From a virus, in the UHGV virus genome UHGV-0286028: 24,559 nucleotides of DNA. One strand, 5' to 3'. The first letter of the stretch is position 1, and each line of letters starts with the position of its first letter. Positions 193 through 24,559 of the stretch are shown here, piece after piece. Both the position numbers and the translations under genes were made by a program. The notes under the pieces are model-generated. The model did not search any database. It saw only the letters and a list, made by a program, of their open reading frames with translations, and was not told the origin of the DNA.

Positions 193-1443
193 GTGCTTAC
201 CGATACAAAATTAAAAAACCTCAAGCCGCAGGACAAACTGTACAAGGTCTCCGATCGTGACGGGCTGTATGTAGCTGTGCTTACGTCAGGCACGGTCTCG
301 TTTCGCTATGACTACCGTATCAACGGTCGCCGCGAAACACTGGTAATCGGGCAGTATGGGCGTGACGGTATCAGCCTGGCAGAAGCGCGAGAAGAACTGA
401 TTGCTGCAAAGAAGCTGCTTAAAGCAGGCCAGTCACCGGCTGCGGCTAAACGTGACGGTATCAAAAAGATTCGTGGTGCCGAGACGTTTGCGGTACATAC
501 CGACAGTTATATGAAACACGTCATCCTGGCTGACAGTACCCGCGCAATGAAACAGGCGGTGATCGACCGTGACATACTTCCGGTTCTTGGCAATAAAATG
601 ATGGCTGAAATTACCACATCGATGGTTCGTGATTTGTGTGACCGGATTGTCGAACGCGGTGGCCGGGCAACAGCAGTGCAGGCCAGGGAGATCATCAGTA
701 GCGTATACCGTCACGCCAATGACCGTGGTCATGGTTTGTTTAATCCTGCGGCTGACATTAAACCTTCGTCTATCGCCATATTTAAACCACGAGAGCGAAC
801 ACTGACACCAGAAGAAATTGGCCTGTTCTTCCGCACGCTGGATGCCATTGGTGCTATGGGCACTATGAAAATGGCTTTAAAACTGGTGCTTATCACTATG
901 GTTCGTAAGGGCGAATTCACCAATGCAACGTGGGATGAAATAGATTTTAAAAAATGGACATGGACAATTCCTCCAGACCGCATGAAGGGAAGCCGGGCGC
1001 ACGTTATTTACCTGCCTAAACAGGCACAGGATATATTGGTCGGGTTGCAGATGTGCGCTGGTGGAAGTGAATATCTGGTTCCTGGTCGTTACAATTTCCG
1101 GAAGCCATTATCTAATGCCGCGCTGAACTCTCTGATCGACAGAACGGTGAAAATAATAAATGAAGATGGTGAGCATATTCAGGACTTCACTGTACATGAT
1201 ATGCGCCGTACAGCCAGTACGTTGTTGCATGAGGCTGGTTATCCTTCAGACTGGATTGAAAAGGCTCTGGCACATGAGCAGAAAGGTGTGCGCGCCGTAT
1301 ATAACAAAGCGGAATACGCCAGACAGCGCGCCTACATGTTGCAGCAGTGGGCCGATATGATTGATTCATGGATTGACGGGGAGCATACGGATCTGATTCC
1401 GTTCTCCCCGTCGAAGTTTGAGAAGTGGATGGCGGGGGAATAA
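193..1443 (+). CDS. int: Tyrosine site-specific integrase, P4/CP4-57-like family
   Basis: 416 aa; GTG start at 193; N-terminus MLTDTKLKNLKPQDKLYKVSDRDGLYV typical of the P4-type integrase arm-binding domain; C-terminal catalytic region with HDMRRT, LAHE and VRAVYNKAEY (R, H and Y catalytic residues). Confidence 0.93.
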   Translation: MLTDTKLKNLKPQDKLYKVSDRDGLYVAVLTSGTVSFRYDYRINGRRETLVIGQYGRDGISLAEAREELIAAKKLLKAGQSPAAAKRDGIKKIRGAETFAVHTDSYMKHVILADSTRAMKQAVIDRDILPVLGNKMMAEITTSMVRDLCDRIVERGGRATAVQAREIISSVYRHANDRGHGLFNPAADIKPSSIAIFKPRERTLTPEEIGLFFRTLDAIGAMGTMKMALKLVLITMVRKGEFTNATWDEIDFKKWTWTIPPDRMKGSRAHVIYLPKQAQDILVGLQMCAGGSEYLVPGRYNFRKPLSNAALNSLIDRTVKIINEDGEHIQDFTVHDMRRTASTLLHEAGYPSDWIEKALAHEQKGVRAVYNKAEYARQRAYMLQQWADMIDSWIDGEHTDLIPFSPSKFEKWMAGE

Positions 1444-1637
1444 CGTTTAATAGTTCTGCTGATTTTCTTCCATCTCTGCTTCTGCTGCCAGTGATTCAAT
1501 TTTGTTTTCGAATATTGCTGACAGTGTTGCAAATTCAGCATCAGTGACAGCGGGAATTGGAACAAACCTGATCCCGCTGTGTGCAAGCATGTTTGCAGTT
1601 TCAAGGCATTTTCTTAAATCTGCTGGTGATGCCCTGT

Positions 1638-2288
1638 TCATGCAGCACGCTCCCGCCCCTGGTTGTCTGTTGGTGACAGCGGAGCATTGCTGAATGCATT
1701 TGTTAATCCGCCAATATCCAACGCGTATCCAGGGTGTAGTTGCACTGCCGGGTCTTCGCACTGATTACCCCAAACATCGAAGCCATGAGACGTCTGGCGG
1801 GCGAACAGTTCAATGCGAGAAACATCGCCTAATAATTGCACAAGTTTTTCACGAACGATATCTGGCTTTCTTGAATGCTCAAGCCGCGGTGCGGTAAATG
1901 ACTGAACGATCCCTGCATTAATGCGCGTAGGTAGTTTTCCCTTTACCGCAAACAGGCAATCTTCACTATTGGCGCGAGTCATGTGTCCCATACCCATAAC
2001 CAGTTTATCTGGTTGTCGACTACCACATTTTATCCACGTGAAGCCCTTCATCGTCATCAGACGGAATCCCCAGGCTTCAACAACTTTTAGTGCTTCGAGT
2101 GGTTGTGTTGGCACCCACCACATGGCCAACAGACAGTTTTCATCGGCCAAATCCCACACAGGAAGGCGGCAGATATCCAGCACACTCATAACCGGATATT
2201 TAAAACCGGCACCGCGATTACCATCTGCGGCTTTGTCCCGGTATACCCAGGGTGGATCTGCATAGATTAGTGTGTATTTCTTAGTCAT
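1638..2288 (-). CDS. MT-A70 family DNA N6-adenine methyltransferase (orphan, phage Dam-like)
   Basis: ATG at 2288 (MTKKYTLIYADPPW...); DPPW catalytic motif; ATG overlaps the TAA stop of the upstream small ORF (ATGACTAA), indicating translational coupling. The longer ORF-track start at 2300 is a GTG. Confidence 0.8.
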   Translation of the reverse strand: MTKKYTLIYADPPWVYRDKAADGNRGAGFKYPVMSVLDICRLPVWDLADENCLLAMWWVPTQPLEALKVVEAWGFRLMTMKGFTWIKCGSRQPDKLVMGMGHMTRANSEDCLFAVKGKLPTRINAGIVQSFTAPRLEHSRKPDIVREKLVQLLGDVSRIELFARQTSHGFDVWGNQCEDPAVQLHPGYALDIGGLTNAFSNAPLSPTDNQGRERAA

Positions 2289-2580
2289 AAACCACCCCAC
2301 AACATCCTATGCCGCTATAGTCGCCACGGCGAAGGCCGTTACCTTTTGTGATACATTGGTCCCTGCGAACCGCGATCCTTGCACGTTCAACATCACCAGA
2401 AGCAACATCCATACACTGAAGCCAAAGGTGAGCGGCAATGCGGAATTGCCCTTTTTTCTCTCTTTCAATCGCGCGTTTTTCGATCTCTATCGCCGCAGGA
2501 GTAACGGCGACAATCTTTGACGGACTGCGCATTGAAACCTTATTCATGTGATATTTTTCAAGTCGGCTTAACTTTCTCAC
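2281..2580 (-). CDS. Hypothetical small protein translationally coupled to the methyltransferase
   Basis: 99-aa ORF (GTG at 2580 preceded by GAGGG; alternative ATG at 2547); stop overlaps the methyltransferase start. No recognisable motif. Confidence 0.45.
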   Translation of the reverse strand: MRKLSRLEKYHMNKVSMRSPSKIVAVTPAAIEIEKRAIEREKKGQFRIAAHLWLQCMDVASGDVERARIAVRRDQCITKGNGLRRGDYSGIGCCGVVYD

Positions 2581-2689
2581 TTAATCCAACCCTCTCTGAA
2601 AATTAATGCCAGCAGATAAAGCCATGCTGAAACAGAGGCCAGGAATAAGTACCATCCTGACCATTTGCTCCAGTGCCTTAGCAGCGCAC

Positions 2690-2938
2690 TCATGCAGCGT
2701 TGCTCACGGGACGATATACACGTTGCTGAACAGGAGGTTTTTTACCCTGGAACTCTGCCGGGCTTGCTGCCTGACGTTCATCAAGCCAACGCTCAACTTC
2801 GTCACGGTTCCATGCGCAGCGTTTGTCAGTGATATACCAGCGTTTAGGAAATTCCCCTGCGCGCTCCATACGGTCGATAGTGCTCCATGACAGTGGCACC
2901 ACCGCCAGGAGTTCCTTCTTACCTAATGCACCTTTCAT
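2690..2938 (-). CDS. AlpA-family HTH DNA-binding protein (putative excisionase / prophage regulator)
   Basis: 82 aa; KKELLAVVPLSWSTIDRMERAGEFPKRWYI matches the AlpA/Xis-type winged-helix pattern; AGAGAGG SD upstream of ATG 2938; position between recombination genes and int. Confidence 0.75.
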   Translation of the reverse strand: MKGALGKKELLAVVPLSWSTIDRMERAGEFPKRWYITDKRCAWNRDEVERWLDERQAASPAEFQGKKPPVQQRVYRPVSNAA

Positions 2939-2987
2939 AAATACCTCTCTTGGTTGCAGTGCGGCGCGTGTGGCGCCGCGGTGGTGG

Positions 2988-3929
2988 TTACATAGATGTT
3001 TCGTTTAATTCTTCCCGACGAACGCTGTAAACGTCGGTGGCTTTTGCCAGCAGTTCGTCATCATCTGAAAGTTTTTGTGCAATGTATTTGTAAGCCTTAT
3101 CCAGTTCGGAGACAGTGCTGTAATTCATCGCTGCGCTGGTAAAGGCCATCAGCATTTCTTCTGGATCACGGCTATCCGCTTTACGAGTTTGCTCATCAGG
3201 CTTTTTCACTGGTTTAGCGTTGATCAGACTGTTCATTCCCGCAGCAGTGGTCGTTTGCGGAGTAATGTCTCGCTCAACGCGCGGTGCCGTTTCCTGTAAT
3301 TCGTCTGGTGTGTAGACGCCCATGATTACGTCAGGACAGTGCAAGCGAGACCAGCGTTTTGTCGCAAGGTATGCGAGTTGTTGTTTCGGATCACTGGCCC
3401 AAAGTGTGGAGTTTCTTACCTGTGCTTGAGACAGCATTAACTCAAGCACTCGAGGTTGATCCTCGCCCTTCATGGTTGCCCATACGCGAACACCGCAGCC
3501 TTCTTCGTCTTTTAGAGTCCAGCCTGGTGCGATATATGGATTGCCGTTTTTGGATGTTTTCTCAACAAACTTACCGATCACGCGTTCCCACGGCCCGAAC
3601 CACTCGTAGTTGATGCGATCTTTTGTTGGCGACATCGTTGAGATAACTGCGTTTACTAATTGGGCTTCATAACCTAGCGTGCCGTTCACAACATGGGTTT
3701 TCTGAGCCACGGCAAACGGGTTCATTCCCCACTGCGCAGCCTGCATTGCCACGGCCATGCAATCAGCTGGTTTCCCGGCGAGGTGCGCCGGTACCGTTAC
3801 GCGGCTTTGCGCCATTACCTCGGCGAATTTCATCAGTTGGTTCAAGCCGTCTGGGCTGAAAATAGTTGCAGCAGTTCCAGCGATTGCTGTGTCTACTGGT
3901 GCGTTGATGTTTGCGATGTCGTTGCTCAT
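2988..3929 (-). CDS. recT: RecT/Red-beta family single-strand annealing recombinase
   Basis: ATG at 3929 overlaps the exonuclease stop (ATGA); core region (QWGMNPF ... KRWSRLHCPDVIMGVYTPDE) resembles the Bet/RecT fold pattern; immediately downstream of the partner exonuclease. Confidence 0.75.
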   Translation of the reverse strand: MSNDIANINAPVDTAIAGTAATIFSPDGLNQLMKFAEVMAQSRVTVPAHLAGKPADCMAVAMQAAQWGMNPFAVAQKTHVVNGTLGYEAQLVNAVISTMSPTKDRINYEWFGPWERVIGKFVEKTSKNGNPYIAPGWTLKDEEGCGVRVWATMKGEDQPRVLELMLSQAQVRNSTLWASDPKQQLAYLATKRWSRLHCPDVIMGVYTPDELQETAPRVERDITPQTTTAAGMNSLINAKPVKKPDEQTRKADSRDPEEMLMAFTSAAMNYSTVSELDKAYKYIAQKLSDDDELLAKATDVYSVRREELNETSM

Positions 3930-4747
3930 ATGTACATATCCTGTTTGCGTGCCCACTCAGGGCGTTTAATGATTTCCACACCGCCCCATTCATCATTTAT
4001 GCGGCATTCGTGATAGGTATTCAGATCCCGGCGGAACAGAGCGTGCCCGGCATCGACATCCGGCGCATCCAGCTCGAACACGCGTACCGGATACCGACCA
4101 CAATCAATGCTTTCGCTCACGGCAAGAAAGAAAAAACCATGCGGCTGACCAGTAACCCTCATTGCGCCTTCGCGGTACATTGCGTCCTGCACGTGGTAGC
4201 GGAATTCCTCGATGTGGCGTGCAAAACGGTCCATATCTGCAACCTTTTTCACGTCGACGATCACGTTGTGCTCGTTCAGCCATTTGTCTGGACGAATGCG
4301 GCACAACTCACCAGTCTCTTCATCATTCCAGTACATTGATGCTTCGCAGTAACCAGGTGCTTCCAGCATCCAGCGTGCCGCCGGGTGAGCCATTGCGCTA
4401 TCACGCATCAGCTCCAGTTTCCGCCACTGCTCGGCATCAAGTACCGTAATCCCCATATCCGCTACATCACGAAGAAATGCTTCTTCGTCAGCTTTACCTT
4501 GTTTCGTCCGACGATCGAACTTCGGTGAAACAATGAAGCGTTTGTCGAATTCTCCAGGCTCCAGAAGCAGACAGTGCAATGCGGTTCCCATATCCAGTGC
4601 AGACTTTTTCTCTTCGTCTTCTGGTGCTGCCTGGACCCATTTAAGAAGCGCCGGATTCTTGGCAACCATGTCCAGTTGCGACTTACTCACGCCGTCACCG
4701 GCGTGGTAGTCTTCGTTGCTGATGTCGAAATAAATTCCCGGTTTCAT
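3926..4747 (-). CDS. PD-(D/E)XK exonuclease (YqaJ / exonuclease VIII-like), recombination partner of RecT
   Basis: 273 aa; N-terminus MKPGIYFDISNEDYHAGDGVSKSQLDM typical of phage PDDEXK exonucleases; ATGA overlap with the upstream gene stop and with the recT start. Confidence 0.75.
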   Translation of the reverse strand: MKPGIYFDISNEDYHAGDGVSKSQLDMVAKNPALLKWVQAAPEDEEKKSALDMGTALHCLLLEPGEFDKRFIVSPKFDRRTKQGKADEEAFLRDVADMGITVLDAEQWRKLELMRDSAMAHPAARWMLEAPGYCEASMYWNDEETGELCRIRPDKWLNEHNVIVDVKKVADMDRFARHIEEFRYHVQDAMYREGAMRVTGQPHGFFFLAVSESIDCGRYPVRVFELDAPDVDAGHALFRRDLNTYHECRINDEWGGVEIIKRPEWARKQDMYI

Positions 4748-5351: not shown

Positions 5352-5936
5352 TTATTGTTTGTTTTTTTCGTTCTGGTTGATGACAAATTCAATGTAACTT
5401 TCGATCTTTGCCTTCTCTGTTTCAGGTAACAATGCGTAGCGCGAGCGGTCATAGTTGATAGTTGCAGGGTCATGCGGATGAATCAGTAGTTCATATCCGT
5501 GACGCCCGAATGCAGATGCAACATTCTCCAGGGTGGAAATGGAAACGCTGACCTCATTGTTTAACAGGCGGCTTATTGTCACCTGGGCGACGCCGGATGC
5601 GCGGTGAAGTTTTCCCTGAGTTGAAAGGTCGCGGCTTTCACTCATCCAGCGTTCCAGGTTGTGAGCTGCCAGCTGACCAATGTCGCTTGGGCCGACAGGC
5701 TGAAAACCTTCCTGAGAAAGCGAGCGATCGATATCAAGCCAGTTACGGGGTTTATTGGCGGCAGCTTCAATTTTTCGCGCAACCTGGTCGCCGATAACCT
5801 TCTTGCCAAGAGCCCAGCGGTTTACCAGATTTGCCTGAGTTCCAAGTTTTTCTGCCATCCGCGTCTGAACACCATTGAATTCACGGTCGATCAAGTCGTT
5901 GAGATTTTGCCTGCGGACGTCCTGGATACTTTTCAT
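5352..5936 (-). CDS. CI-like immunity repressor with two HTH (Cro/C1-type) domains and no peptidase domain
   Basis: 194 aa; N-terminal HTH pattern (TRMAEKLGTQANLVNRWALGKK) and a second HTH-like segment (GVAQVTISRLLNNEVSVSISTLENVASAFG); divergent from a Cro-like gene across a 154-bp region with three palindromic sites; no S24 Ala-Gly/Ser-Lys motifs seen. Confidence 0.6.
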   Translation of the reverse strand: MKSIQDVRRQNLNDLIDREFNGVQTRMAEKLGTQANLVNRWALGKKVIGDQVARKIEAAANKPRNWLDIDRSLSQEGFQPVGPSDIGQLAAHNLERWMSESRDLSTQGKLHRASGVAQVTISRLLNNEVSVSISTLENVASAFGRHGYELLIHPHDPATINYDRSRYALLPETEKAKIESYIEFVINQNEKNKQ

Positions 5937-6090: not shown

Positions 6091-6321
6091 ATGAGCGATA
6101 ACGGACATTTCGATTTCAAAAAGCACTGGCTTGCACTTACTCCGGATGAGCGTGAAGCCTTCGCACAGGAAGCCGGAACGACGAGTCACTATATCCAGAC
6201 TCACTTAACAGGTAAGCGCAAAATGCCAGGTAAGGTATTGATGAATGGGCTTTTTAAAGCCTGTAAAACAAGACAATGGCTGCGCTCAAAAGCAGAACTG
6301 GCATACTTCTTCTACTCATGA
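6091..6321 (+). CDS. Cro-like / YdaS-like small HTH regulator (first gene of the rightward early operon)
   Basis: 76 aa; LTPDEREAFAQEAGTTSHYIQTHLTGKRKMP resembles a short HTH; divergent from the repressor. Confidence 0.5.
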   Translation: MSDNGHFDFKKHWLALTPDEREAFAQEAGTTSHYIQTHLTGKRKMPGKVLMNGLFKACKTRQWLRSKAELAYFFYS

Positions 6322-6682: not shown

Positions 6683-7487
6683 GGTTGAAGTTATCACTCC
6701 TGATAAACCTGAAATTTTTCAGATAGCAGAAATTCTGGGTATTGATCCAGATGCTGTTCTTGGAAAGCTGGTTCGTATATGGGCATGGGCTGACCAGCAA
6801 ACAATAGACGGTAACGCTGGCAGCGTTACAAAAGGAGTACTTGATAGACTCGCTTTTATTACAGGATTTGCTGACGCCCTCATTAGCGTCGGATGGCTTG
6901 CTTATCATGACGGCAAACTAATTCTTCCAAACTTTGAGCGACATAATGGAGAATCATCGAAAAAACGTGCACTTACGAATAGAAGAGTGGCAGAGCATCG
7001 AAAACGAGTAACGCAAAAAGTAACGCCAACAGCGTTACAAAAGGAGTTACCAGAGGAAGAGGAAGATATATATAAAACCCCACACATAGCGCACGTGCGC
7101 GAGGGTGCTCCGACCAGTGAAGCGAACGGTATGCCGTTGCAGGTGGCTGAACCTGAATTTCTGGATGGCCTGAGTGAACCCATCGGGAAATTTCCGATGA
7201 CCGATGGCTGGCATCCGTCGCCGGATTTTCGACGGCGTGCTGCGCTGTGGGGAACGGTCCTGCCGGAACCGGAATTTACACCTGCTGAACTTGCTGCATT
7301 CCGGGATTACTGGATGGCTGAGGGCAAAGTGTTCACGCAGGTTCAGTGGGAACAAAAATTCGCCAGGCACGTAAATCATATCAGGGGAAAATCAAAAAAC
7401 GCCGGGAAAAGCGATGAGCTTGACTGGAATAACACTGACTGGATAGAAGGGGTGTGGGATGAAATCAACTCCAGAACTTCTCAATGA
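6663..7487 (+). CDS. Replication initiation protein (lambda O-like role; replisome-organiser N-domain, DnaT-like C-terminal region)
   Basis: ATG 6663 with GAGGGG SD; directly precedes the lambda-P-like helicase loader; C-terminal W-rich segment (FRDYWMAEGKVFTQVQWEQKFARHV). Confidence 0.55.
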   Translation: MASSWIKVEVITPDKPEIFQIAEILGIDPDAVLGKLVRIWAWADQQTIDGNAGSVTKGVLDRLAFITGFADALISVGWLAYHDGKLILPNFERHNGESSKKRALTNRRVAEHRKRVTQKVTPTALQKELPEEEEDIYKTPHIAHVREGAPTSEANGMPLQVAEPEFLDGLSEPIGKFPMTDGWHPSPDFRRRAALWGTVLPEPEFTPAELAAFRDYWMAEGKVFTQVQWEQKFARHVNHIRGKSKNAGKSDELDWNNTDWIEGVWDEINSRTSQ

Positions 7488-8352: not shown

Positions 8353-8697
8353 ATGAAAAAACAGATACAGGCTCTTGGTCGACTCAAAACAGGCCAGATG
8401 AACAAAACAGAATCTGCGTATTGCCAGCACCTTGAGCAGCGTAAACGTGCAGGGGAAATCGCCTGGTATCGATTCGAGGGTATCAAGCTGCGGTTAGCTG
8501 ACAACACGTTCTATACGCCCGATTTTGCTGTGATGCTCGCCACCGGCGAGATGGAACTGCACGAAGTGAAAGGTTTCTGGACCGACGACGCCAGGGTGAA
8601 AACCAAAGTCGCCGCAGATCAGTATCCGTTCCGAATCATCGGGGTAACGGTTAAACCAAAGAAAGCAGGTGGTGGCTGGAACATCGAAGAGTTCTGA
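8353..8697 (+). CDS. DUF1064-like protein, predicted PD-(D/E)XK nuclease fold
   Basis: 114 aa; YTPDFAV ... ELHEVKG fits a D ... E-x-K nuclease motif; position equivalent to the nin-region recombination/resolvase genes of lambdoid phages. Confidence 0.55.
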   Translation: MKKQIQALGRLKTGQMNKTESAYCQHLEQRKRAGEIAWYRFEGIKLRLADNTFYTPDFAVMLATGEMELHEVKGFWTDDARVKTKVAADQYPFRIIGVTVKPKKAGGGWNIEEF

Positions 8698-8758
8698 ATC
8701 GACGATCTTTTTAGTTATCAATGTAATCAATAAGTTATGTGGATAATCGAGGGTAAAG

Positions 8759-9253
8759 ATGGAAAGTAATATCAAAGGGTTAGTTGCCGCCGGGCATGAG
8801 ATGGCTTCGGAACTGAAAGCAGAATGTGGTGCCGTTGATATGCGCAGTGTGGCAAAGCTGATCAGCGATTTGGCAACGCAACTGGAAGTGCAACTGGCGC
8901 GTGCTAATGCGCTGGCAGCGGAGAATGCGGCGCTGAAGGCTGCGCACCCTCAACCATTCGGACCTGAGATGATGAAGGCTCTTGATGCGTATGAGAAGTA
9001 TCAGGATGAAGTGCCGGAGACTGGGATGCTCAATGCATTTTTCATCTTGCGCGACAGTATCCGTGTTGACACCCCAGCCACCGATGCTTTCCTGTCTGAA
9101 GTACGGGCGCAGGGGGTGGATATGGCTCGTAACGCGATGATTGATTTTGTTGATGGTGAAGTTGGGCCAAACAAGAACGTTCCGGGGCTGATTAGAGGCG
9201 CAGAGATATGCGTAAGTATTGCTGAACAGCTTCGCAAAGGAGGCAACCAGTGA
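8759..9253 (+). CDS. Hypothetical protein (Ala-rich, probable coiled coil in N-terminal half)
   Basis: 164 aa, GAGGG SD, no recognisable motif. Confidence 0.5.
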   Translation: MESNIKGLVAAGHEMASELKAECGAVDMRSVAKLISDLATQLEVQLARANALAAENAALKAAHPQPFGPEMMKALDAYEKYQDEVPETGMLNAFFILRDSIRVDTPATDAFLSEVRAQGVDMARNAMIDFVDGEVGPNKNVPGLIRGAEICVSIAEQLRKGGNQ

Positions 9254-9816
9254 GCAAGATTAATTATCAGGCACTGCGTGAGGCGGCAGAGAAAGCCGGT
9301 GAAGATAAGTGGCAGGCTAAAAAAATAAATGGTGATTTTTTCGTTATTCGTCACGGTAGTTATACAAGACAGCATGGATACACATCGTATCAACCCATTG
9401 CTGAGATTGATTGTAAGCCAGTCCGTGATTTTGTTGCCAAGGCTAATCCGGCAACCGTGCTGGCGCTTCTGGATGAACGGGAAAGAAACCAGCAATACAT
9501 CAAACGCCGCGACCAGGAGAACGAGGATATTGCGCTAACGGTAGGGAAGCTGCGCGTTGAGCTTGAGGAGACAAAATCAAAACTCAACGAGCAGCGCGAG
9601 TATTACGAGGGAGTTATCTCTGATGGGTGCAAGCGTATTGCTGAACTGGAAGCGCGGGAAGTTCAATTACCGACTCGCTACGACCTTCGATATGGACACC
9701 CGATAAATGAAGGTGAGCGACAAGTCATGATACCTAAAGAAAATGGCAGTTGGCTTTACCTGATTGACCTAGAACACGCATTACGCGTCGCTGGCATTCG
9801 CATCAAAGGAGAGTGA
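9250..9816 (+). CDS. Ead/Ea22-like protein
   Basis: GTG start overlapping the upstream stop; N-terminus MSKINYQALREAAEKAGEDKWQ is the characteristic Ea22-family start; central coiled-coil region. Confidence 0.7.
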   Translation: MSKINYQALREAAEKAGEDKWQAKKINGDFFVIRHGSYTRQHGYTSYQPIAEIDCKPVRDFVAKANPATVLALLDERERNQQYIKRRDQENEDIALTVGKLRVELEETKSKLNEQREYYEGVISDGCKRIAELEAREVQLPTRYDLRYGHPINEGERQVMIPKENGSWLYLIDLEHALRVAGIRIKGE

Positions 9817-9817
9817 G

Positions 9818-10006
9818 ATGAACGGACAAATATCAATTATTCGCCCTGGCGCTTGTGACGAAGAGATAAGGCTGATTATCCGCCTTGCGATGGGTAGAAC
9901 AATAACTGCTCTCATTACTCCAGAAAATCTCGCATTAGCATTAACCGGAAAGTCAGACCTGCCAGTAGAGCTAAAGCTGCGAAATGTTGAGATTAAGGTG
10001 AAATAG
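9818..10006 (+). CDS. Small hypothetical protein
   Basis: 62-aa ORF in tight series with its neighbours. Confidence 0.35.
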   Translation: MNGQISIIRPGACDEEIRLIIRLAMGRTITALITPENLALALTGKSDLPVELKLRNVEIKVK

Positions 10007-10008
10007 CT

Positions 10009-10815
10009 ATGACCACTATTACCAAAGAGCGACTACTGACAATCAAGCAGTGGCGCGAAACATACGGACCTGGTAGCAACGTTGTACTGCCAGCAGAAGA
10101 AGCGGAAGAACTGGCACGAATTGCTCTGGCATCACTGGAGGCAGAGCCAGTGGCAAAAATTATAGCTCACTACCCATTAGGAATTGACGTAGGCAAACAA
10201 AAGTTCGTACAGGCCATTGGAGAGCTTCCTGACTTTGGAGGATATCTATTCGCCGCTCCACCTGTGCCGGTAACACAGGCTAATGTCGCGCAAGCAATTG
10301 AAAATCTCAAGCAGAAGTTAGTGGAATGCAATCGCTATAACTACTGCGCAGATGCAGTTAAGGGCGTAGAGGATGCCTGCCGTGCTGTTAGCTATAGCCA
10401 AGCCGACAATCAACCAGCATCTGGCAACCAGGCTGCCGAATCCAATCGCGGTAATGAGTGGACTGGCAATCCTGATATTGATAACGCCATCATCATGCTC
10501 GACCGCATAGATACGCTGGAAAATTGCGATGATGACCGTATTGAGGCTGTTAAGGCTGTTTTGCGTAGACTGGCTGGCAACTATCCGGTAACTCCGGATG
10601 GTTGGATAAGCTGTAGTGAGCGAATGCCGAATACCAAAACAGCCGTTCTTGTTGCCGTGGAGTTTGACAGGAAAGGTGACTGGCGAATGAAATGGGCTAC
10701 TTACATCCCGGGGCATCCTGACGCTAATGATGGATGGATAATTCCTGGTGCGTCGTGGAAACCGTCACACTGGATGCCGCTACCGGAACCACCGCAGGAG
10801 GTTAACCGTGGCTAA
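10009..10815 (+). CDS. DUF551 domain-containing protein
   Basis: 268 aa; C-terminal W/P-rich segment (WISCSERMP ... WIIPGASWKPSHWMPLPEPP) typical of the DUF551 phage domain. Confidence 0.6.
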   Translation: MTTITKERLLTIKQWRETYGPGSNVVLPAEEAEELARIALASLEAEPVAKIIAHYPLGIDVGKQKFVQAIGELPDFGGYLFAAPPVPVTQANVAQAIENLKQKLVECNRYNYCADAVKGVEDACRAVSYSQADNQPASGNQAAESNRGNEWTGNPDIDNAIIMLDRIDTLENCDDDRIEAVKAVLRRLAGNYPVTPDGWISCSERMPNTKTAVLVAVEFDRKGDWRMKWATYIPGHPDANDGWIIPGASWKPSHWMPLPEPPQEVNRG

Positions 10816-11089
10816 CCTGCAACTTGCCGTTAGATGTGAATACTTCGACGCCATGATTCGCGGAGAGAAAACGGAAGAGTATCGCCTGTGTAATGACTAC
10901 TGGAATAAACGCCTCGTTAATCGTAAGTATGACCGCCTGATTATCACAAAGGGATATCCGAAGCGCGACGATTCCAGCCGCAGAATTGATGTTCCGTATG
11001 ACGGATATGAAATCAAGACAATCACACATCCACACTTCGGTGATAAACCGGTAAAGGTGTTCGCGATAAAGGTGAATATTGATGGCTAA
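10808..11089 (+). CDS. ASCH-domain protein (PUA-like fold)
   Basis: GTG at 10808 with AGGAGG SD 6 nt upstream; IRGEKTEEYR matches the ASCH G-x-K-x-x-E-x-R signature; 93 aa. Confidence 0.6.
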   Translation: MANLQLAVRCEYFDAMIRGEKTEEYRLCNDYWNKRLVNRKYDRLIITKGYPKRDDSSRRIDVPYDGYEIKTITHPHFGDKPVKVFAIKVNIDG

Positions 11090-11420
11090 ATCAGCAGCAG
11101 AGCGCAAAGCCGCTCAGAGAGCCAGACAAGCTGAATCCGGTGTGCGTAAGCTGGAAATTGTGCTTGATGCTCAGGAAATTGAAATGCTGGAGCGTAACTG
11201 TGCCACGCGTCGCCCCGGGCGTGCGCCTTACGAATTTGGTGAGTATATAGCGTTACTGATCCGCCAGGATGATGCACGCGTGCGCGGGCGTATAAAATCG
11301 ATCAGCAGAAAACGTTGCGGTAAGTGCGGCGAGAGCGTTCCTGTGAATTCATGCCCGTGTAATGGTGACTCGCAATGCTGGGTGACCAAAGGCTGGCATG
11401 AAACGAAATTAATAGTGTGA
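11082..11420 (+). CDS. Hypothetical protein with C-terminal Cys cluster (zinc-ribbon-like)
   Basis: ATG 11082; N-terminal basic segment; C-terminus CGKCGESVPVNSCPCNGDSQC. Confidence 0.5.
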   Translation: MAKSAAERKAAQRARQAESGVRKLEIVLDAQEIEMLERNCATRRPGRAPYEFGEYIALLIRQDDARVRGRIKSISRKRCGKCGESVPVNSCPCNGDSQCWVTKGWHETKLIV

Positions 11421-11650
11421 CATGTCACGAAGGTGTTATGCCAAAAATACGCTACGACCTTGAAGATATGAGAGATAACTCAGCAAATTTTCCGAAAGAG
11501 GTTAAATTTCTCATGCATAAGTATGGTTGCGCCAAGAGGGATATAGTTATCGACAGTCAGCACCCTTGCGGCGAGGATGTAATTTTCATTCGCGGTAAAT
11601 GGGAAGGGTATCTTGACGAGAGTTTTTACGATGAATTTGATGGACTTTGA
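11417..11650 (+). CDS. Small hypothetical protein, last gene before the late-operon terminator
   Basis: 77-aa ORF with ATGA-type overlap to the upstream gene. Confidence 0.4.
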   Translation: MTCHEGVMPKIRYDLEDMRDNSANFPKEVKFLMHKYGCAKRDIVIDSQHPCGEDVIFIRGKWEGYLDESFYDEFDGL

Positions 11651-15026: not shown

Positions 15027-15233
15027 ATGTGCATGGGTAGCTCACCATCAGTGCCTGCAACACCAGAAGTTCAGGCAGCACCACAGGAGCAGGATGCCGC
15101 CGTTGTTGATGCCCGCGACGAAGAAACTCGTCGCCGTCGCGCTGCTGCTGGTCGTAGTTCTACGCTGCTTACCGGTTCTCAGGGCGACACATCAACCGCT
15201 AATACCAGCGGTAAAACGCTGCTTGGTCAGTAA
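15027..15233 (+). CDS. Small low-complexity virion-associated protein (T7 gp7.3-like position and composition)
   Basis: 68 aa; GGAG SD 8 nt upstream; Ala/Gln/Arg/Ser-rich; sits immediately before the portal gene, as gene 7.3 does in T7. Chosen over the overlapping 15007-15246 ORF. Confidence 0.4.
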   Translation: MCMGSSPSVPATPEVQAAPQEQDAAVVDARDEETRRRRAAAGRSSTLLTGSQGDTSTANTSGKTLLGQ

Positions 15234-15247: not shown

Positions 15248-16927
15248 ATGGCGGAAACAACTAAAGAGCGATTGAACAAACAGTTCGCACAACTTGAAAG
15301 CGAGCGTCAGTCGTTCGAGCCGCACTGGCGCGAGTTGAGTGATTACATCAACCCGCGTGGTTCCCGCTTTCTGACTTCTGAGGTCAACCGTAACGATCGA
15401 CGCAATACACGCATTATTGATTCGACCGGGACTATGGCGGCGCGCACTCTCGCCAGCGGCATGATGTCAGGCATCACAAGCCCCGCGCGTCCGTGGTTTC
15501 GCCTGGCTACGCCAGATCCTGAAATGATGGATTATGGCCCTGTTAAGTTGTGGCTTGAGGCGGTGCAGAACCGCATGAACGATATGTTCAATAAGTCGAA
15601 TCTCTATCAGTCGCTGCCGCAGTTATACGGAAGCCTCGGCACATACAGCACTGCCGCAATGGCGGTGCTGGAGGATGACGAGGACATCATTCGTACAATG
15701 CCATTCCCGATAGGAAGTTACTACCTGGCTAACTCACCTCGTGGCAGTGTGGACACCTGTTTTCGCAAGTTCTCTATGACTGTTCGTCAGCTTGTTCAGG
15801 AGTTCGGACTAAATAACGTCAGCGAATCCGTAAAAAGCATGTGGGAAAGCGGCACCTACGAGAAGTGGATTGAAGTGATGCATTCGGTTTACCCGAACAT
15901 TGACCGCGATACATCGAAGCTGGATAGCAAGAACAAGCCATTCAAATCGGTTTATTACGAGGTTGGTGGCGATAACGACAAGTTGTTGCGTGAGTCCGGA
16001 TTCGATGAGTTTCCAATTATGGCTCCGCGCTGGGAAGTTAACGGCGAAGATGTTTATGGATCATCATGCCCGGGTATGCTGGCGCTTGGACCTGTTAAGG
16101 CATTGCAGCTTCTCCAGAAGCGCAAGTCGCAGTTGATTGATAAAGCCACCAATCCGCCGATGGTTGCTCCGACTTCCCTCAAGAATCAGCGCGCCTCCCT
16201 TCTTCCTGGCGACATCACGTATATCGATCAGATTACTGGTCAGGATGGTTTCAGGCCTGCTTATCTGGTTAACCCCAGTACAGCAGATTTGGTGGCAGAC
16301 ATTCAGGACACTCGTCAAATCATTAACAGCGCCTACTTTGTCGATCTGTTCATGATGTTGCAGAACATCAATACCCGCTCGATGCCTGTTGAAGCAGTGA
16401 TCGAAATGAAAGAAGAAAAACTTCTGATGTTGGGGCCGGTTCTGGAGCGTCTGAACGACGAATGTCTTAATCCTCTCATTGACCGCGCTTTCTCGATGAT
16501 GGTGCGTAAAAACATGCTGCCGCCACCGCCTGACGCGATGGAAGGTATGCCCCTGAAGGTCGAATACATTTCCGTCATGGCTCAGGCGCAGAAGTCTATC
16601 GGCCTGTCCAGTCTGGCGTCTACGGTCAACTTCATTGGTCAACTTGCGCAAGCGAAACCAGAAGCTCTCGACAAACTCAACGTTGATCAGGCGATCGATG
16701 CATTCGCTGATATGTCCGGAGTGTCTCCAACCGTCATTGTTCCGCAGGAACAGGTTGAGCAGGCTCGCCAGCAACGGGCACAGCAACAACAGCAGCAACA
16801 AATGATGGCGATGGGGATGGCGGCGGCACAGGGGGCCAAGACGCTAAGCGAAGCTAAAACTTCGGATCCGAGTGTGTTGTCAGCTATGGCGAATGCAGTT
16901 AGTGGTCAGGGTGGGCAATCACAATGA
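15248..16927 (+). CDS. Portal (head-to-tail connector) protein, T7 gp8-like
   Basis: 559 aa, first large gene after the terminase; Gln/Ala/Met-rich C-terminal tail (QQQQQQMMAMGMAAAQG) resembling podovirus connector C-termini; GGAG SD. Confidence 0.78.
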   Translation: MAETTKERLNKQFAQLESERQSFEPHWRELSDYINPRGSRFLTSEVNRNDRRNTRIIDSTGTMAARTLASGMMSGITSPARPWFRLATPDPEMMDYGPVKLWLEAVQNRMNDMFNKSNLYQSLPQLYGSLGTYSTAAMAVLEDDEDIIRTMPFPIGSYYLANSPRGSVDTCFRKFSMTVRQLVQEFGLNNVSESVKSMWESGTYEKWIEVMHSVYPNIDRDTSKLDSKNKPFKSVYYEVGGDNDKLLRESGFDEFPIMAPRWEVNGEDVYGSSCPGMLALGPVKALQLLQKRKSQLIDKATNPPMVAPTSLKNQRASLLPGDITYIDQITGQDGFRPAYLVNPSTADLVADIQDTRQIINSAYFVDLFMMLQNINTRSMPVEAVIEMKEEKLLMLGPVLERLNDECLNPLIDRAFSMMVRKNMLPPPPDAMEGMPLKVEYISVMAQAQKSIGLSSLASTVNFIGQLAQAKPEALDKLNVDQAIDAFADMSGVSPTVIVPQEQVEQARQQRAQQQQQQQMMAMGMAAAQGAKTLSEAKTSDPSVLSAMANAVSGQGGQSQ

Positions 16928-17222: not shown

Positions 17223-17918
17223 ATGAATTTATTTGAGCGTTTGCTGTATCGCCGTCTTTGCAATGAGCAACCAGTCGATGGTGGAGCAGCTCCGGCTGCG
17301 TCAGAACCGTCAGCGCCTGCAGGTGATAACCCTGCTCCAGTTGGTGATCCATCACAACAGGAAGGTGATAAGCCACAACCTGTTGCTGATGGCGATAAAC
17401 CTGCTGATGACAAAAAGCCTGAAAATGATAAGCAGGATGAAAAAAAGGGCGGCGATAAACCAGAGGGTGCGCCTGAGAAGTACGAGTTTCAGGCTGCCGA
17501 AGGCGTAGAGCTGGATACAGAAGCGTTGAAGGAATTCGAGCCGGTGGCGCGAGAACTAAACCTGACCAACGAGCAAGCGCAAAAGCTGGTTGATGCTTAT
17601 CCGAAGATTCTGGCAGGTGTGCAGCAGCGCCAGGCAGAAGCCTGGCAGAAAACAACCGAGCAGTGGGCTGCTGATGTAAAAGCTGACAAAGAAATCGGTG
17701 GCGACAAGTTGATTTCTAACCTTAGCGCCGCACAGCGTGCGCTTGACCAGTTCGGGACACCCGAGCTCAAAGAATATCTGAACACCACCGGACTGGGTAA
17801 TCACCCTGATCTGGTCAAAACGTTCGTGAAAATCGGAAAGGCGATGTCTGAAGATGGCATGGTCACCGGTGGTAATGAAGGCCAGCGTAGTGCGGCCGAA
17901 GTGCTCTATGGCAAATAA
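17223..17918 (+). CDS. Scaffolding protein (candidate)
   Basis: ATG 17223 with AGGAG SD; acidic, Pro/Asp/Lys-rich low-complexity N-terminal half and helical C-terminal half; between portal and capsid genes. Confidence 0.5.
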   Translation: MNLFERLLYRRLCNEQPVDGGAAPAASEPSAPAGDNPAPVGDPSQQEGDKPQPVADGDKPADDKKPENDKQDEKKGGDKPEGAPEKYEFQAAEGVELDTEALKEFEPVARELNLTNEQAQKLVDAYPKILAGVQQRQAEAWQKTTEQWAADVKADKEIGGDKLISNLSAAQRALDQFGTPELKEYLNTTGLGNHPDLVKTFVKIGKAMSEDGMVTGGNEGQRSAAEVLYGK

Positions 17919-17932
17919 GAGAGGAAATGACA

Positions 17933-18919
17933 ATGGCTGTTAAAGGCTTAACTGCGCTGACGCTGGCTGACTGGGGTAAGCGCGTCGATCCAAACGGGAA
18001 AGTCGATAAGATTATCGAGCTTCTCGGTCAAACTAACCCGATCCTTCAGGATATGCCTTTTGTCGAAGGGAACCTTCCTACCGGACACCGAACCACCATT
18101 CGTTCTGGTTTACCTTCAGCTACCTGGCGTTTGCTGAACTATGGCGTACAGCCAAGCAAATCAACCACAGTGCAGGTAACCGATTCCGTGGGCATGCTGG
18201 AAACCTATGCTGAAGTCGATAAGTCACTGGCTGATCTGAACGGCAATACCGCCGAATTCCGCCTGTCTGAAGACCGCGCATTTATTGAAGCGATGAATCA
18301 GCAGATGGCGCAGACGCTGTTTTATGGTGATTCCAGCGTTAACCCTCAGCAGTTTATGGGACTGTCCTCCCGCTATTCCAGCCTGTCTGCGGGTAATGCT
18401 CAGAACATCATTGATGCTGGTGGCACGGGTACAGATAACACCTCAATCTGGTTAGTAGTGTGGGGCGAAAACACCGTGCATGGCATCTTCCCGAAAGGGC
18501 AGAAGGCTGGCATCCAGATGGAAGATAAAGGCCAGGTGACACTGGAAGATGCGAATGGCGGCAAGTACGAAGGCTACCGTACCCATTACAAATGGGACAA
18601 CGGACTTGCTCTGCGTGACTGGCGTTATGTTGTTCGCATTGCAAACATCGATGTCAGCAATCTTTCAGAACCTTCCTCTGCCGCAAATATTGCGAAGTTG
18701 ATGGTTAAAGCACTGCATCGCATTCCGAACCGTGGCATGGGGCGCCCGGTGTTCTACATGAACCGCACTGTAGGCCAGGCTCTTGATTTGCAGTCTCTGG
18801 AGAAAACATCTCTGGCGATCAGCGTAAAAGAGACAGAAGGCGAGTGGTGGACTTCATTCCGTGGTGTACCAATCCGTGAAACTGATGCGCTTCTGGAAAC
18901 AGAAGCCCGCGTGGTGTAA
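17933..18919 (+). CDS. Major capsid protein
   Basis: About 330 aa directly after the scaffold gene and before a stem-loop; ATG 17933 has better SD spacing than ATG 17927; size and position fit a capsid gene. Confidence 0.7.
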   Translation: MAVKGLTALTLADWGKRVDPNGKVDKIIELLGQTNPILQDMPFVEGNLPTGHRTTIRSGLPSATWRLLNYGVQPSKSTTVQVTDSVGMLETYAEVDKSLADLNGNTAEFRLSEDRAFIEAMNQQMAQTLFYGDSSVNPQQFMGLSSRYSSLSAGNAQNIIDAGGTGTDNTSIWLVVWGENTVHGIFPKGQKAGIQMEDKGQVTLEDANGGKYEGYRTHYKWDNGLALRDWRYVVRIANIDVSNLSEPSSAANIAKLMVKALHRIPNRGMGRPVFYMNRTVGQALDLQSLEKTSLAISVKETEGEWWTSFRGVPIRETDALLETEARVV

Positions 18920-18935
18920 CGCCTGTTATTAACCT

Positions 18936-18955
18936 GTGGGTCGTAACAGACCCAC
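18936..18955 (+). other. Stem-loop immediately downstream of the capsid gene
   Basis: GTGGGTC (18936-18942) / GACCCAC (18949-18955), 6-nt loop, no T-run. Confidence 0.45.
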
Positions 18956-18970
18956 TAATGGAGAAAGAAG

Positions 18971-19408
18971 ATGATCACCGACAAACTGTTGATGTTCTCC
19001 GAAGCACAGGCGGTAACTGATACCGCGGCTTCTACTGACGTAATCGATCTCGGTCCAATTGACGGAAAACGTCGTGATATCGGCGTTGGTTACCCGCTTG
19101 AGTTTTGGGCGCTGGTTAACACAGCCGCCGCGGCAAGCGGTGATGCAACTGTAAACATCCAGTTGCAGACGAGTGAGAATAACAGCTCATGGTCCACTAT
19201 TTATGATAGTGGCGCACTGGCAAAGGCCACCCTGACAGCAGGTAAGCGAGTTGTTTCTGCAAAGGTGCCAGCCGGTGTTCAGCGATATCTGCGTGTTAAC
19301 TACTCCGTCGCAACTGGCCCACTAACGGCTGGCAAATTCACTGCGGGTATCAATCTTGATGTTGATGCCAATACGCCGTATCCGATCCGCTCAAAAGTAA
19401 CTGGTTAA
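18971..19408 (+). CDS. Hypothetical structural protein (possible capsid decoration / minor head protein)
   Basis: 145 aa, position after the capsid gene; Ala/Thr/Gly-rich. Confidence 0.45.
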   Translation: MITDKLLMFSEAQAVTDTAASTDVIDLGPIDGKRRDIGVGYPLEFWALVNTAAAASGDATVNIQLQTSENNSSWSTIYDSGALAKATLTAGKRVVSAKVPAGVQRYLRVNYSVATGPLTAGKFTAGINLDVDANTPYPIRSKVTG

Positions 19409-19418
19409 GGTGATATTG

Positions 19419-19754
19419 ATGTCAGGTGAGAAACCAAGATACCGCGTTCTGCGCCTCTCTCATATCCATAACACTCTGTGGCCGGAGGGGGCAGAAATCG
19501 AATACGAAGGTGAGCCTGGTAGCGCACTGGAACCTGTTAACGATGCAGCCAGACAGGCAAAAGCAAAAGTTGCAGGAAAGGTGTCAATGGCAGCAACCAG
19601 CACCAAAATCATCAACGATGTGTCAGATGATGGTGAACTGGATAAGCTCCGTGAAGAGTACGAATTGCTCTTTAACGAGAAGCCACACCATAACGCCAAA
19701 GCAGAAACGCTCCGCGAGAAGATCGCAGATAAGCGTAAAGAACTAGGCGTGTAA
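19419..19754 (+). CDS. Hypothetical structural-module protein
   Basis: ATG 19419 with AAGGTGA SD; charged C-terminal half; followed by a terminator. Confidence 0.45.
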   Translation: MSGEKPRYRVLRLSHIHNTLWPEGAEIEYEGEPGSALEPVNDAARQAKAKVAGKVSMAATSTKIINDVSDDGELDKLREEYELLFNEKPHHNAKAETLREKIADKRKELGV

Positions 19755-19770
19755 GCCTCGCGAATCCGAC

Positions 19771-19792
19771 AAGGGGCTTCTGCCCCTTTATT
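19771..19792 (+). terminator. Rho-independent terminator after the capsid sub-operon
   Basis: Perfect stem AAGGGGC (19771-19777) / GCCCCTT (19782-19788), loop TTCT, then TATT. Confidence 0.65.
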
Positions 19793-19804
19793 GCAGGAGT
19801 GTAT

Positions 19805-20128
19805 ATGGAACTCGTAAACCTCAAAACCGGCACTGACAGCTACCAGGATGAGAGCGGAGAAACCAGAACTCGCGATGAATACCCGTGGGGGCTGTGCATC
19901 ACTCTTAATAACGACACATTGAATAAGCTGAAGGCGCAACCTCAGGGCGTCGGAACAGAAGTGATGATAACTGCAAAAGCTGTTATTCGAGGCCTGTCTG
20001 CCAGAGAAACTGACGATGGTGTTAATCGCAGCGCCGATCTGCAGATCACTGATATGGCAATCGCTCCTGTTTCCGGTGATGTAGAAAAATCAGCGGCTGA
20101 AACCCTCTACGGTAACGGGGGTGAGTGA
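19805..20128 (+). CDS. Hypothetical virion protein
   Basis: ATG 19805 with AGGAG SD; 107 aa; precedes the gp11-like gene. Confidence 0.45.
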   Translation: MELVNLKTGTDSYQDESGETRTRDEYPWGLCITLNNDTLNKLKAQPQGVGTEVMITAKAVIRGLSARETDDGVNRSADLQITDMAIAPVSGDVEKSAAETLYGNGGE

Positions 20129-23204: not shown

Positions 23205-23668
23205 TGATCGATGTTCAAATTATTCCCGCTACCGAAGAGCATCTTCAGATGATTTTGCCGGATGTTCGTCAGGCTGATATTGACGAACTGTATGCGGTAT
23301 CGCTGATGACTACCGAAGATGCGCTGCGCGTTGGTCTTCGCACTGCGACTATGGCCTGGTCAGGGTTCGCGAACGGAGAACTGGTAACCATGTTTGGTGT
23401 ATCTCCGGCGTCAATGATCGGTGGCAATGGTACGCCCTGGCTGGTAGGAACCAGCCGTATTGAAAAATATCAGAAGACATTTCTGCGCCACTGCCGCCCT
23501 GTATTGCAGCAGATGCTGGCAGTTTATCCGCGCCTGGAAAACTACGTCGACGAGCGAAACCATGTTGCCAAAGCATGGCTGCACTGGCTTGGATTCAGGC
23601 TTGAAGAAGCCGCGCCTTATGGTGCTCTTGGTCTTAATTTCCACAGATTTCACATGGAGAGAAAATAA
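23204..23668 (+). CDS. Internal virion protein (gp13-like position)
   Basis: 154 aa, TGATG overlap with the gp12-like stop; order matches T7 gp13. Confidence 0.4.
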   Translation: MIDVQIIPATEEHLQMILPDVRQADIDELYAVSLMTTEDALRVGLRTATMAWSGFANGELVTMFGVSPASMIGGNGTPWLVGTSRIEKYQKTFLRHCRPVLQQMLAVYPRLENYVDERNHVAKAWLHWLGFRLEEAAPYGALGLNFHRFHMERK

Positions 23669-24213
23669 TGTGCGATCCGGTTATTGCTGGTGGCGCAATG
23701 CTCGCCATGAGTGGCATTCAGGCATACACCCAGTACCAACAGGGAAAGTATGCCTCGAAGGTTGCAGAAGCGAACGCAGATATAGCCACAGCTCAGGCAA
23801 ATGATGCAATAAACAGAGGTAACGCTGAAGCTGAGCAACGACGCAGAGAGACCCGACAGCGGCTTGGTACACAGGCGGCGACAATGGGGGCTACCGGCGC
23901 TGATTTATCTACAGGTAACGCGCTGGATATATTTGGCGACACTGCCCAGTTTGGCGCTCTTGATTCGCTGACGACGGTGAATAACGCGCAACGCGAGGCT
24001 TACGGTTATCAGGTTCAGGCTGCCAACTATAAAGCAGAAGCCAGTTCAGCCCGTAAACAGGGGAATGTGGGAGCAGCAACAACATTGCTCACTGCGCCTC
24101 TGAAGGCATACGGTGCGTACCAGATGTTTGGTGGGACGTGGAGTCCGTTTACTCAAAGCACTCCTGCGCCAATCGGGGCAGCAGCAGGAACCAGATTACC
24201 CGGAGGATTATAA
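23668..24213 (+). CDS. Internal virion protein (T7 gp14-like)
   Basis: 181 aa, starts MC ... with Ala/Gln-rich helical sequence, similar in size and start to T7 gp14; TAATG overlap with the upstream gene. Confidence 0.5.
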   Translation: MCDPVIAGGAMLAMSGIQAYTQYQQGKYASKVAEANADIATAQANDAINRGNAEAEQRRRETRQRLGTQAATMGATGADLSTGNALDIFGDTAQFGALDSLTTVNNAQREAYGYQVQAANYKAEASSARKQGNVGAATTLLTAPLKAYGAYQMFGGTWSPFTQSTPAPIGAAAGTRLPGGL

Positions 24214-24559
24214 TGCCAGTCGTACCAACAGTATCCGGACGTCAGGTTGAGAGTCGTGGAGTTCAGTCAGCAGGCTTGCAGACGTTTTCTCAGCAAGGTA
24301 TTGGTGATGCTTTTGTTCGGGCAGGGACAGAGGCAATTGATGTTTTGGGGCAGGCAAAACAGCGTGCCAATATCGCTCTGGCTCAGGAGGCATCTCTTAA
24401 CCTCAGTCAGATAAGCAGCGATCTGCTGAATAATCCTGAAACAGGATTGCTTAACCTGAAAGGGAAAAATGCTATTGGAAAAGGCCATGAGTATACGCAG
24501 CAGTTTGATGCTCAGGTCGAACAACTGGCTATGTCGCTGCCGGATGAACAGGCTCGTAA
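24214..24559 (+). CDS. Internal virion protein (gp15-like), 3'-truncated by the window end
   Basis: ATG 24214 with GGAGG SD; the frame stays open to the last base (MPVVPTVSGRQVESRGVQSAGLQTF ...); absent from the ORF track because it has no stop. Confidence 0.5.

Follow-up and report, generated by a model that had tools for sequence, protein, structure and literature searches.

The DNA analysed here is the virus genome UHGV-0286028, a stretch of 24,559 nucleotides (hereafter, the window). From left to right it carries an integrase gene, a leftward early block, a repressor/cro switch, a replication module, an accessory region and, after the terminase genes, a run of genes for portal, capsid, tail and internal virion proteins. 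Gene calls were taken from a six-frame list of open reading frames (ORFs) together with Pfam, PHROG and NCBIfam scans; several of the longest-ORF starts were over-extended relative to annotated relatives. We find that the window is almost certainly the integrase-proximal 24.5 kb of a temperate podovirus of about 39 kb and of the epsilon15/phiV10 type (genus Uetakevirus), inserted at the 3′ end of guaA in Escherichia coli or a close relative. Its gene content, homologies, folds, the position of its attachment (att) site and its near-identity to characterised phages are direct observations of this study.

Megablast against phage genomes placed the window closest to Escherichia phage TL-2011b (97.3% identity, 90% coverage of the window), vB_EcoP_ZX5 (hereafter ZX5; 97.7% over 88%), PAS61 (97.3% over 83%) and, for the right half of the window, phiV10 (98.2%), with Escherichia phages HEMP4 and phiv142-3 also among the top matches. 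The records of ZX5 and epsilon15 are classified in Uetakevirus, the species of which are phiV10, epsilon15, SPN1S and PAS61 according to the NCBI taxonomy. The window is collinear with the annotations of TL-2011b, epsilon15, ZX5 and a prophage of E. coli HS4, with reciprocal protein matches, and the order integrase, leftward early genes, repressor/cro, replication, TerS/TerL, portal, capsid, adaptor, nozzle and internal proteins is conserved throughout. Beyond the point at which the window ends, complete relatives encode gp15-, gp16- and gp17-like proteins together with a tailspike and a lysis cassette. A first-pass annotation had made its assignment to a podovirus depend on the affinities of the structural proteins and on the genes downstream; the former match podoviruses, and the complete relatives (ZX5 genome and HS4 prophage annotations) contain no RNA polymerase, tape-measure or sheath gene.

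The position of the left end points the same way. In E. coli HS4, a homologous 39-kb prophage lies directly after guaA with the core ATTGAGTGGGAATGATT at both of its ends, and the base that corresponds to window position 1 follows directly on the end of guaA; the window likewise shows the integration at the 3′ end of guaA, through this core, that characterises Uetakevirus. For ZX5, a short-tailed phage, both the att core/attP and integration at the guaA 3′ end have been demonstrated experimentally and spontaneous induction has been reported, and the guaA site has also been published for phiV10 and epsilon15 (PMC9782041). Contrary to the expectation that integrated podoviruses with a T7-type particle are uncommon, 424 of 5,426 complete E. 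coli genomes (about 8%) contain 80% or more of the window. Prophages of this type, which belong to a described genus, are thus common in E. coli and not rare.

Several points weigh against this assignment. At the nucleotide level, similarity to epsilon15 amounts to 72–82% identity over about 54% of the window, and the best database record covers at most about 92% of it. The accessory segment at 8.9–11.1 kb is a novel combination of known pieces that is not contiguous in any of the 5,426 genomes. The structural model of the tail adaptor is of moderate quality (predicted local distance difference test, pLDDT, 63) and its match to T7 is weak by E-value. Finally, the 3′ limit of the window falls within the gp15-like gene, so that a tailspike gene, lysis genes, an antirepressor and attR, if this copy has them, would lie outside it, and this copy could be truncated or defective. 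A prophage remnant that no longer forms particles would agree with an element visible in part only and with the accessory-region pseudogenes of some relatives (HS4). Against this, every essential gene in the window is intact and has the same ORF length as in ZX5, PAS61 and phiV10, which were isolated as particles; we regard a remnant as improbable and continue to read the window as part of a Uetakevirus prophage.

Table 1. Features of the window, with strand and supporting matches (aa, amino acids; HTH, helix-turn-helix)
Feature	Position	Strand	Basis
Left prophage end (attL side)	1..192	+	position 1 = base after guaA stop codon; positions 1-2 = final two bases of 17-bp att core ATTGAGTGGGAATGATT
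Tyrosine integrase, 416 aa, P4-type arm-binding domain	193..1443	+	PF13356 3.9e-20, PF22022 5.8e-12, PF00589 1.4e-19
DUF1382	1447-1641	-	Pfam
MT-A70 adenine methyltransferase	1638-2300	-	Pfam; PADLOC MTase_II 1.3e-77
PerC-like activator	2281-2580	-	Pfam
AlpA-type excisionase/regulator	2690-2938	-	Pfam
RecT annealase	2988-3929 (longest ORF to 3956)	-	PF03837 2e-44
PD-(D/E)XK exonuclease	3926-4747	-	PF12684 4.2e-22
Prophage repressor, 194 aa, HTH	5352..5936	-	PF01381 1.2e-9
Cro-like regulator, 76 aa, divergent from repressor	6091..6321	+	phrog_35 'transcriptional repressor' 5.6e-13
Replication initiator, DnaT domain	6645/6663-7487	+	PF17948 5.1e-19; phrog_2509 'replication initiation protein'
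Lambda-P-family helicase loader	7459-8235	+	PF06992 1.7e-55
Variable accessory region (DUF1064, Eae-like, Ead/Ea22, DUF551, small ORFs)	8353..11650	+	Pfam and PHROG
gp49-like regulator, just before terminase genes	11079-11420	+	PHROG (phrog_536 'transcriptional regulator')
TerS	11647/11728-12321	+	PF03592 1.4e-29
TerL	12318-13793	+	phrog_2 1.6e-52; 94% identical to epsilon15 gp2
115-aa repetitive protein	13879-14226	-	phrog_3163, function unknown; no Pfam or PADLOC match
tRNA-Arg(UCU)	14523-14599	-	ARAGORN; Rfam tRNA 71 bits
68-aa protein, epsilon15 gp3 homologue	15027..15233	+	88% identical to epsilon15 gp3
Portal, 559 aa, T7 gp8 family	15248..16927	+	PF12236 1.4e-187
Bbp19-like protein, 98 aa	16924-17220	+	PF25181 2.8e-17
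231-aa protein (longest ORF 233 aa), scaffold position	17217/17223-17918	+	phrog_458 'protease'
Major capsid protein, 330/328 aa	17927/17933-18919	+	PF20911 (GP7) 2.1e-149
Bbp16-type cement, 145 aa	18971-19408	+	PF21190 6.1e-47
gp9-like protein	19419-19754	+	capsid-shell cassette
gp10-type staple, 107 aa	19805-20128	+	PF21628 1.2e-51
Tail adaptor (tail tubular protein A, T7 gp11-like), 201 aa (longest ORF 202)	20125/20128-20733	+	85% identical to epsilon15 gp11
Tail nozzle (tail tubular protein B, T7 gp12-like), 823 aa	20733..23204	+	Carin-1 nozzle 8ck1_A 3.1e-217 (phmmer)
gp13-like internal virion protein, 154 aa	23204-23668	+	PHROG 'internal virion protein' (phrog_308/phrog_418 among internal proteins)
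gp14-like internal virion protein, 181 aa	23668-24213	+	PF24072 T7_gp14, 2.5e-7, 31.2 bits vs cutoff 27
epsilon15 gp15-like protein, N-terminal 115 aa, truncated	24213..24559 (window end)	+	69% identical to epsilon15 gp15

In the right half, our data support the portal, adaptor, nozzle and gp14-like protein as distant homologues of T7 gp8, gp11, gp12 and gp14, encoded in the same order. T7 gp8 matches the same portal family as the protein of the window (PF12236, 2.8e-113), which in turn finds the Carin-1 portal (8ck0_A) at 4.2e-179, and T7 gp14 likewise shares its family (PF24072) with the gp14-like protein. The nozzle is 44% identical to that of Carin-1, with a template modelling (TM) score of 0.91. 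Its AlphaFold2 (AF2) model, for which a diverse alignment was used (pLDDT 89.3), matched T7 gp12 over the full length in Foldseek (E 2e-23 to 3e-21, TM 0.50–0.57; 6r21_a at 2.2e-23, 9jyz_P at TM 0.55/0.57), and hhalign aligned the central region of the two proteins (T7 residues 351–466, E 4e-4), the gp12 central domain being the only part reported as significantly similar between epsilon15 and T7 (Hardies et al., PMC4819975). For the adaptor, a search of known structures gave the Carin-1 connector (8ck1_E) at 8.3e-26. With the AF2 model of this protein, the top 22 Foldseek matches were all podovirus adaptors, among them T7 gp11 (7box_M, probability 0.99, E 0.024); across T7 gp11 chains, probabilities were 0.96–0.99, E-values 0.02–0.07 and TM about 0.45. 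Profile alignment (hhalign) between the adaptor family and T7 gp11 was negative, and phmmer and profile searches of PDB sequences with adaptor and nozzle found Carin-1, LME-1 and a further nozzle without extending to T7. The 154-aa protein matched the T7 gp13 family PF11090 weakly (E 0.088, 13.6 bits), its position and size fit, and its epsilon15 counterpart has been called a standard IVP-A homologue (PMC4819975). The same work provides evidence from comparison of hidden Markov models (HMM-HMM) for epsilon15 gp12, IVP-A, IVP-B and gp17. The nozzle family itself is large, with 18,292 cluster representatives at 50% identity and E ≤ 0.001; Pfam holds no model dedicated to it, and it falls short of Phage_nozzle PF25675.

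This kinship has clear limits. When all proteins of the window were compared with T7 gp6.7 to gp19 by BLASTP, no match was significant; direct sequence kinship with T7 is therefore rejected, and only kinship at the level of profiles and folds holds. The head shell (capsid, cement and staple) and the terminase are not T7-type: cement and staple lack a counterpart in T7, the capsid belongs to PF20911 whereas T7 gp10 belongs to PF21703, the closest solved capsids in the PDB are those of BPP-1 (3j4u, 9.5e-129) and epsilon15 (3j40, 2e-85), and TerL had no match in the Pfam scan, whereas T7 gp19 matches PF22530 and PF03237. Hardies et al. (PMC4819975) placed the terminase and capsid of epsilon15 with siphovirus lineages. 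The description of a T7-type virion module in the first-pass annotation is thus upheld for portal, adaptor, nozzle and gp14-like protein and has to be given up for capsid, cement, staple and terminase. Similarly, the T7 gene order that it proposed is present from the portal to the gp14-like gene but is interrupted, because the cement, gp9-like and staple genes stand between capsid and adaptor and the Bbp19-like gene stands between the portal and the 231-aa gene. Its gene positions and protein sizes (portal 559, capsid about 330, gp11-like about 200 and gp12-like 823 aa) agree roughly with the ORF list and scans, and it had correctly placed the terminase genes upstream of the portal.

Given a T7-type portal, adaptor, nozzle and gp14-like protein in T7 order, one might suspect a temperate member of the Autographiviridae, that is, a true T7 relative that acquired an integrase, as in LUZ100 or Burkholderia phage Paku; temperate T7-like phages are indeed described in the literature (PMC10134795 and PMC9022590). 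Neither the window nor its complete relatives contain a single-subunit RNA polymerase, a T7-type DNA polymerase or a primase-helicase, the terminase genes precede the portal and are of a non-T7 type, the capsid is of a different Pfam family, and no protein has BLASTP similarity to any T7 protein. The lack of an RNA polymerase, already remarked on for the window in the first-pass annotation, extends to relatives that are 97% identical and holds for the complete ZX5 genome and the HS4 prophage. Barring such a gene in the part of the element beyond the window, membership in the Autographiviridae is rejected, and we attach practically no probability to it.

Within the virion region, the Uetakevirus assignment is accompanied by one mildly notable point, a capsid-shell cassette that looks swapped relative to epsilon15. 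Across window positions 17883–20118 there is no nucleotide similarity to epsilon15, and the proteins encoded there are 38–43% identical to their epsilon15 counterparts (capsid 43%), whereas those of the flanks (portal, scaffold-position protein, adaptor and nozzle) are 75–88% identical. The capsid is closer to BPP-1 Bbp17 (62%) than to epsilon15, epsilon15 gp7 being 46% identical to Bbp17, while the portals of the window and of epsilon15 are about equally distant from that of BPP-1 (both approximately 45%). For this reason we think it somewhat more probable than not that the four genes at 17.9–20.1 kb (capsid, cement, gp9-like and staple) were swapped as a unit between lineages. As the cassette is common to phiV10, TL-2011b and ZX5, it is not unique to the window. 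If a true swap took place, one portal and one assembly protein would work with capsid proteins that differ at more than half of their residues, which would make these phages a natural test case of compatibility between capsid, scaffold and portal.

Two smaller proteins near the portal had been given T7-derived names. The 68-aa protein, previously labelled 7.3-like, owes that label to its position: against T7 gp7.3 it gave a BLASTP E-value of 20 and no match to PF11653, and only its C-terminal half showed a marginal Smith-Waterman score with the gp7.3 C-terminus (47, against 27.9 ± 5 for shuffles, reached in 1 of 1000 shuffles). Over 31 aa it shares 58% identity with the C-terminal end of BPP-1 Bbp22, likewise encoded directly upstream of the portal. 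Like T7 gp6.7, the protein begins with MC. The name scaffold for the 231-aa protein is likewise positional, there being no match to PF05396 and a negative hhalign result against T7 gp9; an acidic, proline-rich N-terminus and its location would nevertheless fit a scaffold. In public database records the protein is labelled a protease or peptidase. We found no protease or scaffold domain in Pfam, NCBIfam, PDB phmmer or PDB profile searches and no PDB relative; the protein is probably a scaffold whose protease label has been carried along by annotation. A literature search on epsilon15 gp6 as a scaffold returned nothing relevant. The motifs GAPEKYEF, ADKEIGGDKL and TGLGNHP are conserved with epsilon15 gp6 and BPP-1 Bbp18.

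Turning to the left half, the temperate phage genes that the first-pass annotation had recognised (a P4-family integrase, RecT/exonuclease, a repressor/cro switch and a lambda-P-like loader) are all present where it had placed them. The integrase combines the N-terminal Arm-DNA-bind_3 domain (DUF4102-type) and the Phage_integrase catalytic domain of the P4 family, consistent with the ZX5 integrase, which is also related to a P4-like integrase gene (PMC9782041). Proteins of the leftward early block (1447..2938) are 77–85% identical to epsilon15 gp29, gp31 and gp33; the leftward genes continue with RecT and the exonuclease and also include two small ORFs. In BLASTP, the RecT/exonuclease module showed no real similarity to epsilon15 RecT/RecE, and we therefore regard it as a different allele of the recombination module. 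The repressor is 42% identical to epsilon15 gp38 and the cro-like protein, for which the Pfam scan gave no match, 76% identical to gp39. A Pfam scan of the repressor returned HTH families only and no S24 peptidase (autocleavage) domain; the clear HTH lies in the C-terminal half, and a weak second HTH-like match (YdaS) lies toward the N-terminus. A repressor of this kind implies antirepressor-mediated induction, as reported for ZX5. The repressor sequence is said to be identical in ZX5, phiV10 and phiv142-3 (PMC9782041), which is a statement about those phages and not a protein-level comparison with the repressor of the window.

The replication genes bear on whether the left half is lambdoid, as had been proposed, and on whether the element as a whole could be a lambdoid podovirus with a short tail, similar to P22 or to Shiga toxin (Stx) phages. 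The lambda-P loader, the Ead/Ea22, Eae and DUF551 genes and the many megablast matches to Stx-converting phages would suit such a phage. In the initiator, however, the DnaT domain PF17948 was the sole Pfam match and no lambda O-type domain was found, so that its earlier designation as O-like does not hold; CI-S24 families are likewise missing among the scanned ORFs, as are N/Q antitermination families among their Pfam and PHROG matches, although no search was aimed at N/Q. Nucleotide comparison links the replication genes to other Uetakevirus-type phages and to neither lambda nor Stx phages. For these reasons the left half is only loosely lambdoid: the loader is clearly of the lambda P family, while the initiator, the repressor and the replication DNA do not fit the term. 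In the right half, the portal belongs to one family with T7 gp8 and the nozzle model is far nearer to the T7 type (1e-23) than to P22 gp10 (7e-9, with a lower TM-score than T7 gp12). A P22-like or Stx-like lambdoid podovirus is thus very unlikely, and the assignment to Uetakevirus stands. Within the DnaT-domain gene we also noted a 28-nt repeat in two copies 209 bp apart (6811–6838 and 7020–7047), each containing the palindrome GTAACGC-N5-GCGTTAC, which may be origin elements.

The accessory region is mosaic relative to all relatives. Its Ead/Ea22/DUF551 pieces (8900–11100) are individually common, occurring in thousands of E. coli prophages and in plasmids of about 95 kb, and the Stx-phage matches probably fall here. 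Scanning the accessory ORFs and the minus-strand ORF with PADLOC left the methyltransferase as the sole scorer. Between TerL and the portal, the minus-strand gene encodes a 115-aa protein with repeated MSGDV/GNV-type motifs; in ZX5 and the HS4 prophage the slot holds a different sequence, and no more than 11 complete E. coli genomes have the allele of the window. The tRNA-Arg(UCU) gene, also on the minus strand and inside the late region, is conserved in relatives and was the only hit of an Rfam scan of the window. In the genes of the window, AGA and AGG are used at 5.7 and 3.5 per 1000 codons, respectively.

Taken together with what is known of its relatives, the gene content suggests the following mode of life. 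The P4-type tyrosine integrase and the AlpA-type excisionase would recombine the 17-bp att core, and the HTH repressor, which lacks a peptidase domain and lies opposite the cro-like gene, would maintain lysogeny until released by an antirepressor presumably encoded elsewhere in the genome. The DnaT-domain initiator and lambda-P-type loader would recruit host DnaB, with host RNA polymerase carrying out all transcription. DNA packaging by TerS and TerL would fill an epsilon15/BPP-1-type capsid strengthened by cement and staple, on which the T7-family portal would bear a dodecameric adaptor and a hexameric nozzle. The gp13-like, gp14-like and larger downstream proteins would be ejected to form a trans-envelope channel, as in T7. 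For virion morphology, oligomeric states, ejection mechanism and antirepressor-dependent induction we infer by analogy with relatives.

As a discovery the element carries little weight, since it adds one more example to a prophage type that is common and already described. Both the phage type and its T7-tail kinship are already known (Hardies 2016, PMC4819975; ZX5 paper 2022, PMC9782041), the distant kinship in tail and ejection proteins having been reported both on the basis of sequence profiles and through structures solved for relatives. The practical value lies in annotation: the 201-aa and 823-aa hypothetical proteins become tail adaptor and nozzle, the 145-aa protein a capsid cement and the 107-aa protein a staple, and the protease label of the 231-aa protein has no detectable basis.

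Among known systems, TL-2011b, ZX5, PAS61, phiv142-3 and phiV10 share with the window the gene order, integrase, guaA att site, capsid cassette and tail and internal proteins, some of them differing by other alleles in part of RecT (3414–3645), in the accessory segment at 8.9–11.1 kb and in the minus-strand ORF at 13.9–14.3 kb. Epsilon15, a Salmonella phage and the type species of Uetakevirus, has the same overall architecture and gene order, with protein identities of 87% for integrase, 94% for TerL, 81% for portal, 75% for gp6, 85% for adaptor, 88% for nozzle, 63% for gp13, 78% for gp14 and 69% for the N-terminus of gp15; it differs in that its annotation lists no lambda-P loader, which the window has, and in its Dcm methylase and RuvC, which are absent from the window. 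T7 shares the PF12236 portal and PF24072 gp14 families, the adaptor and nozzle folds, and the order portal, capsid, adaptor, nozzle, gp13-like, gp14-like and large internal proteins. It is set apart by its capsid family; the scaffold-position and adaptor proteins of the window match no T7 family, and the window adds cement and staple, an upstream terminase of another type and a temperate lifestyle, and has no RNA polymerase. BPP-1 (Bordetella, Rauchvirus), Carin-1 (Cobetia) and LME-1 (Legionella) share the virion genes of the window, and structures have been solved for them. BPP-1 is 62% identical to the window in capsid and 45% in both cement and portal, but has its own DNA polymerase, primase and diversity-generating retroelement; the Carin-1 nozzle is matched at E 3e-217 and TM 0.91, and in LME-1 nozzle and adaptor are detectable. 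According to the LME-1 paper, Carin-1 is a T7-like virus and the LME-1 tail complex closely resembles that of T7, both lacking sequence similarity to T7, and the T7-like gene order is kept save for one added decoration gene. The hosts and early regions of these three phages are unlike those of the window, while their virion gene set is the same.

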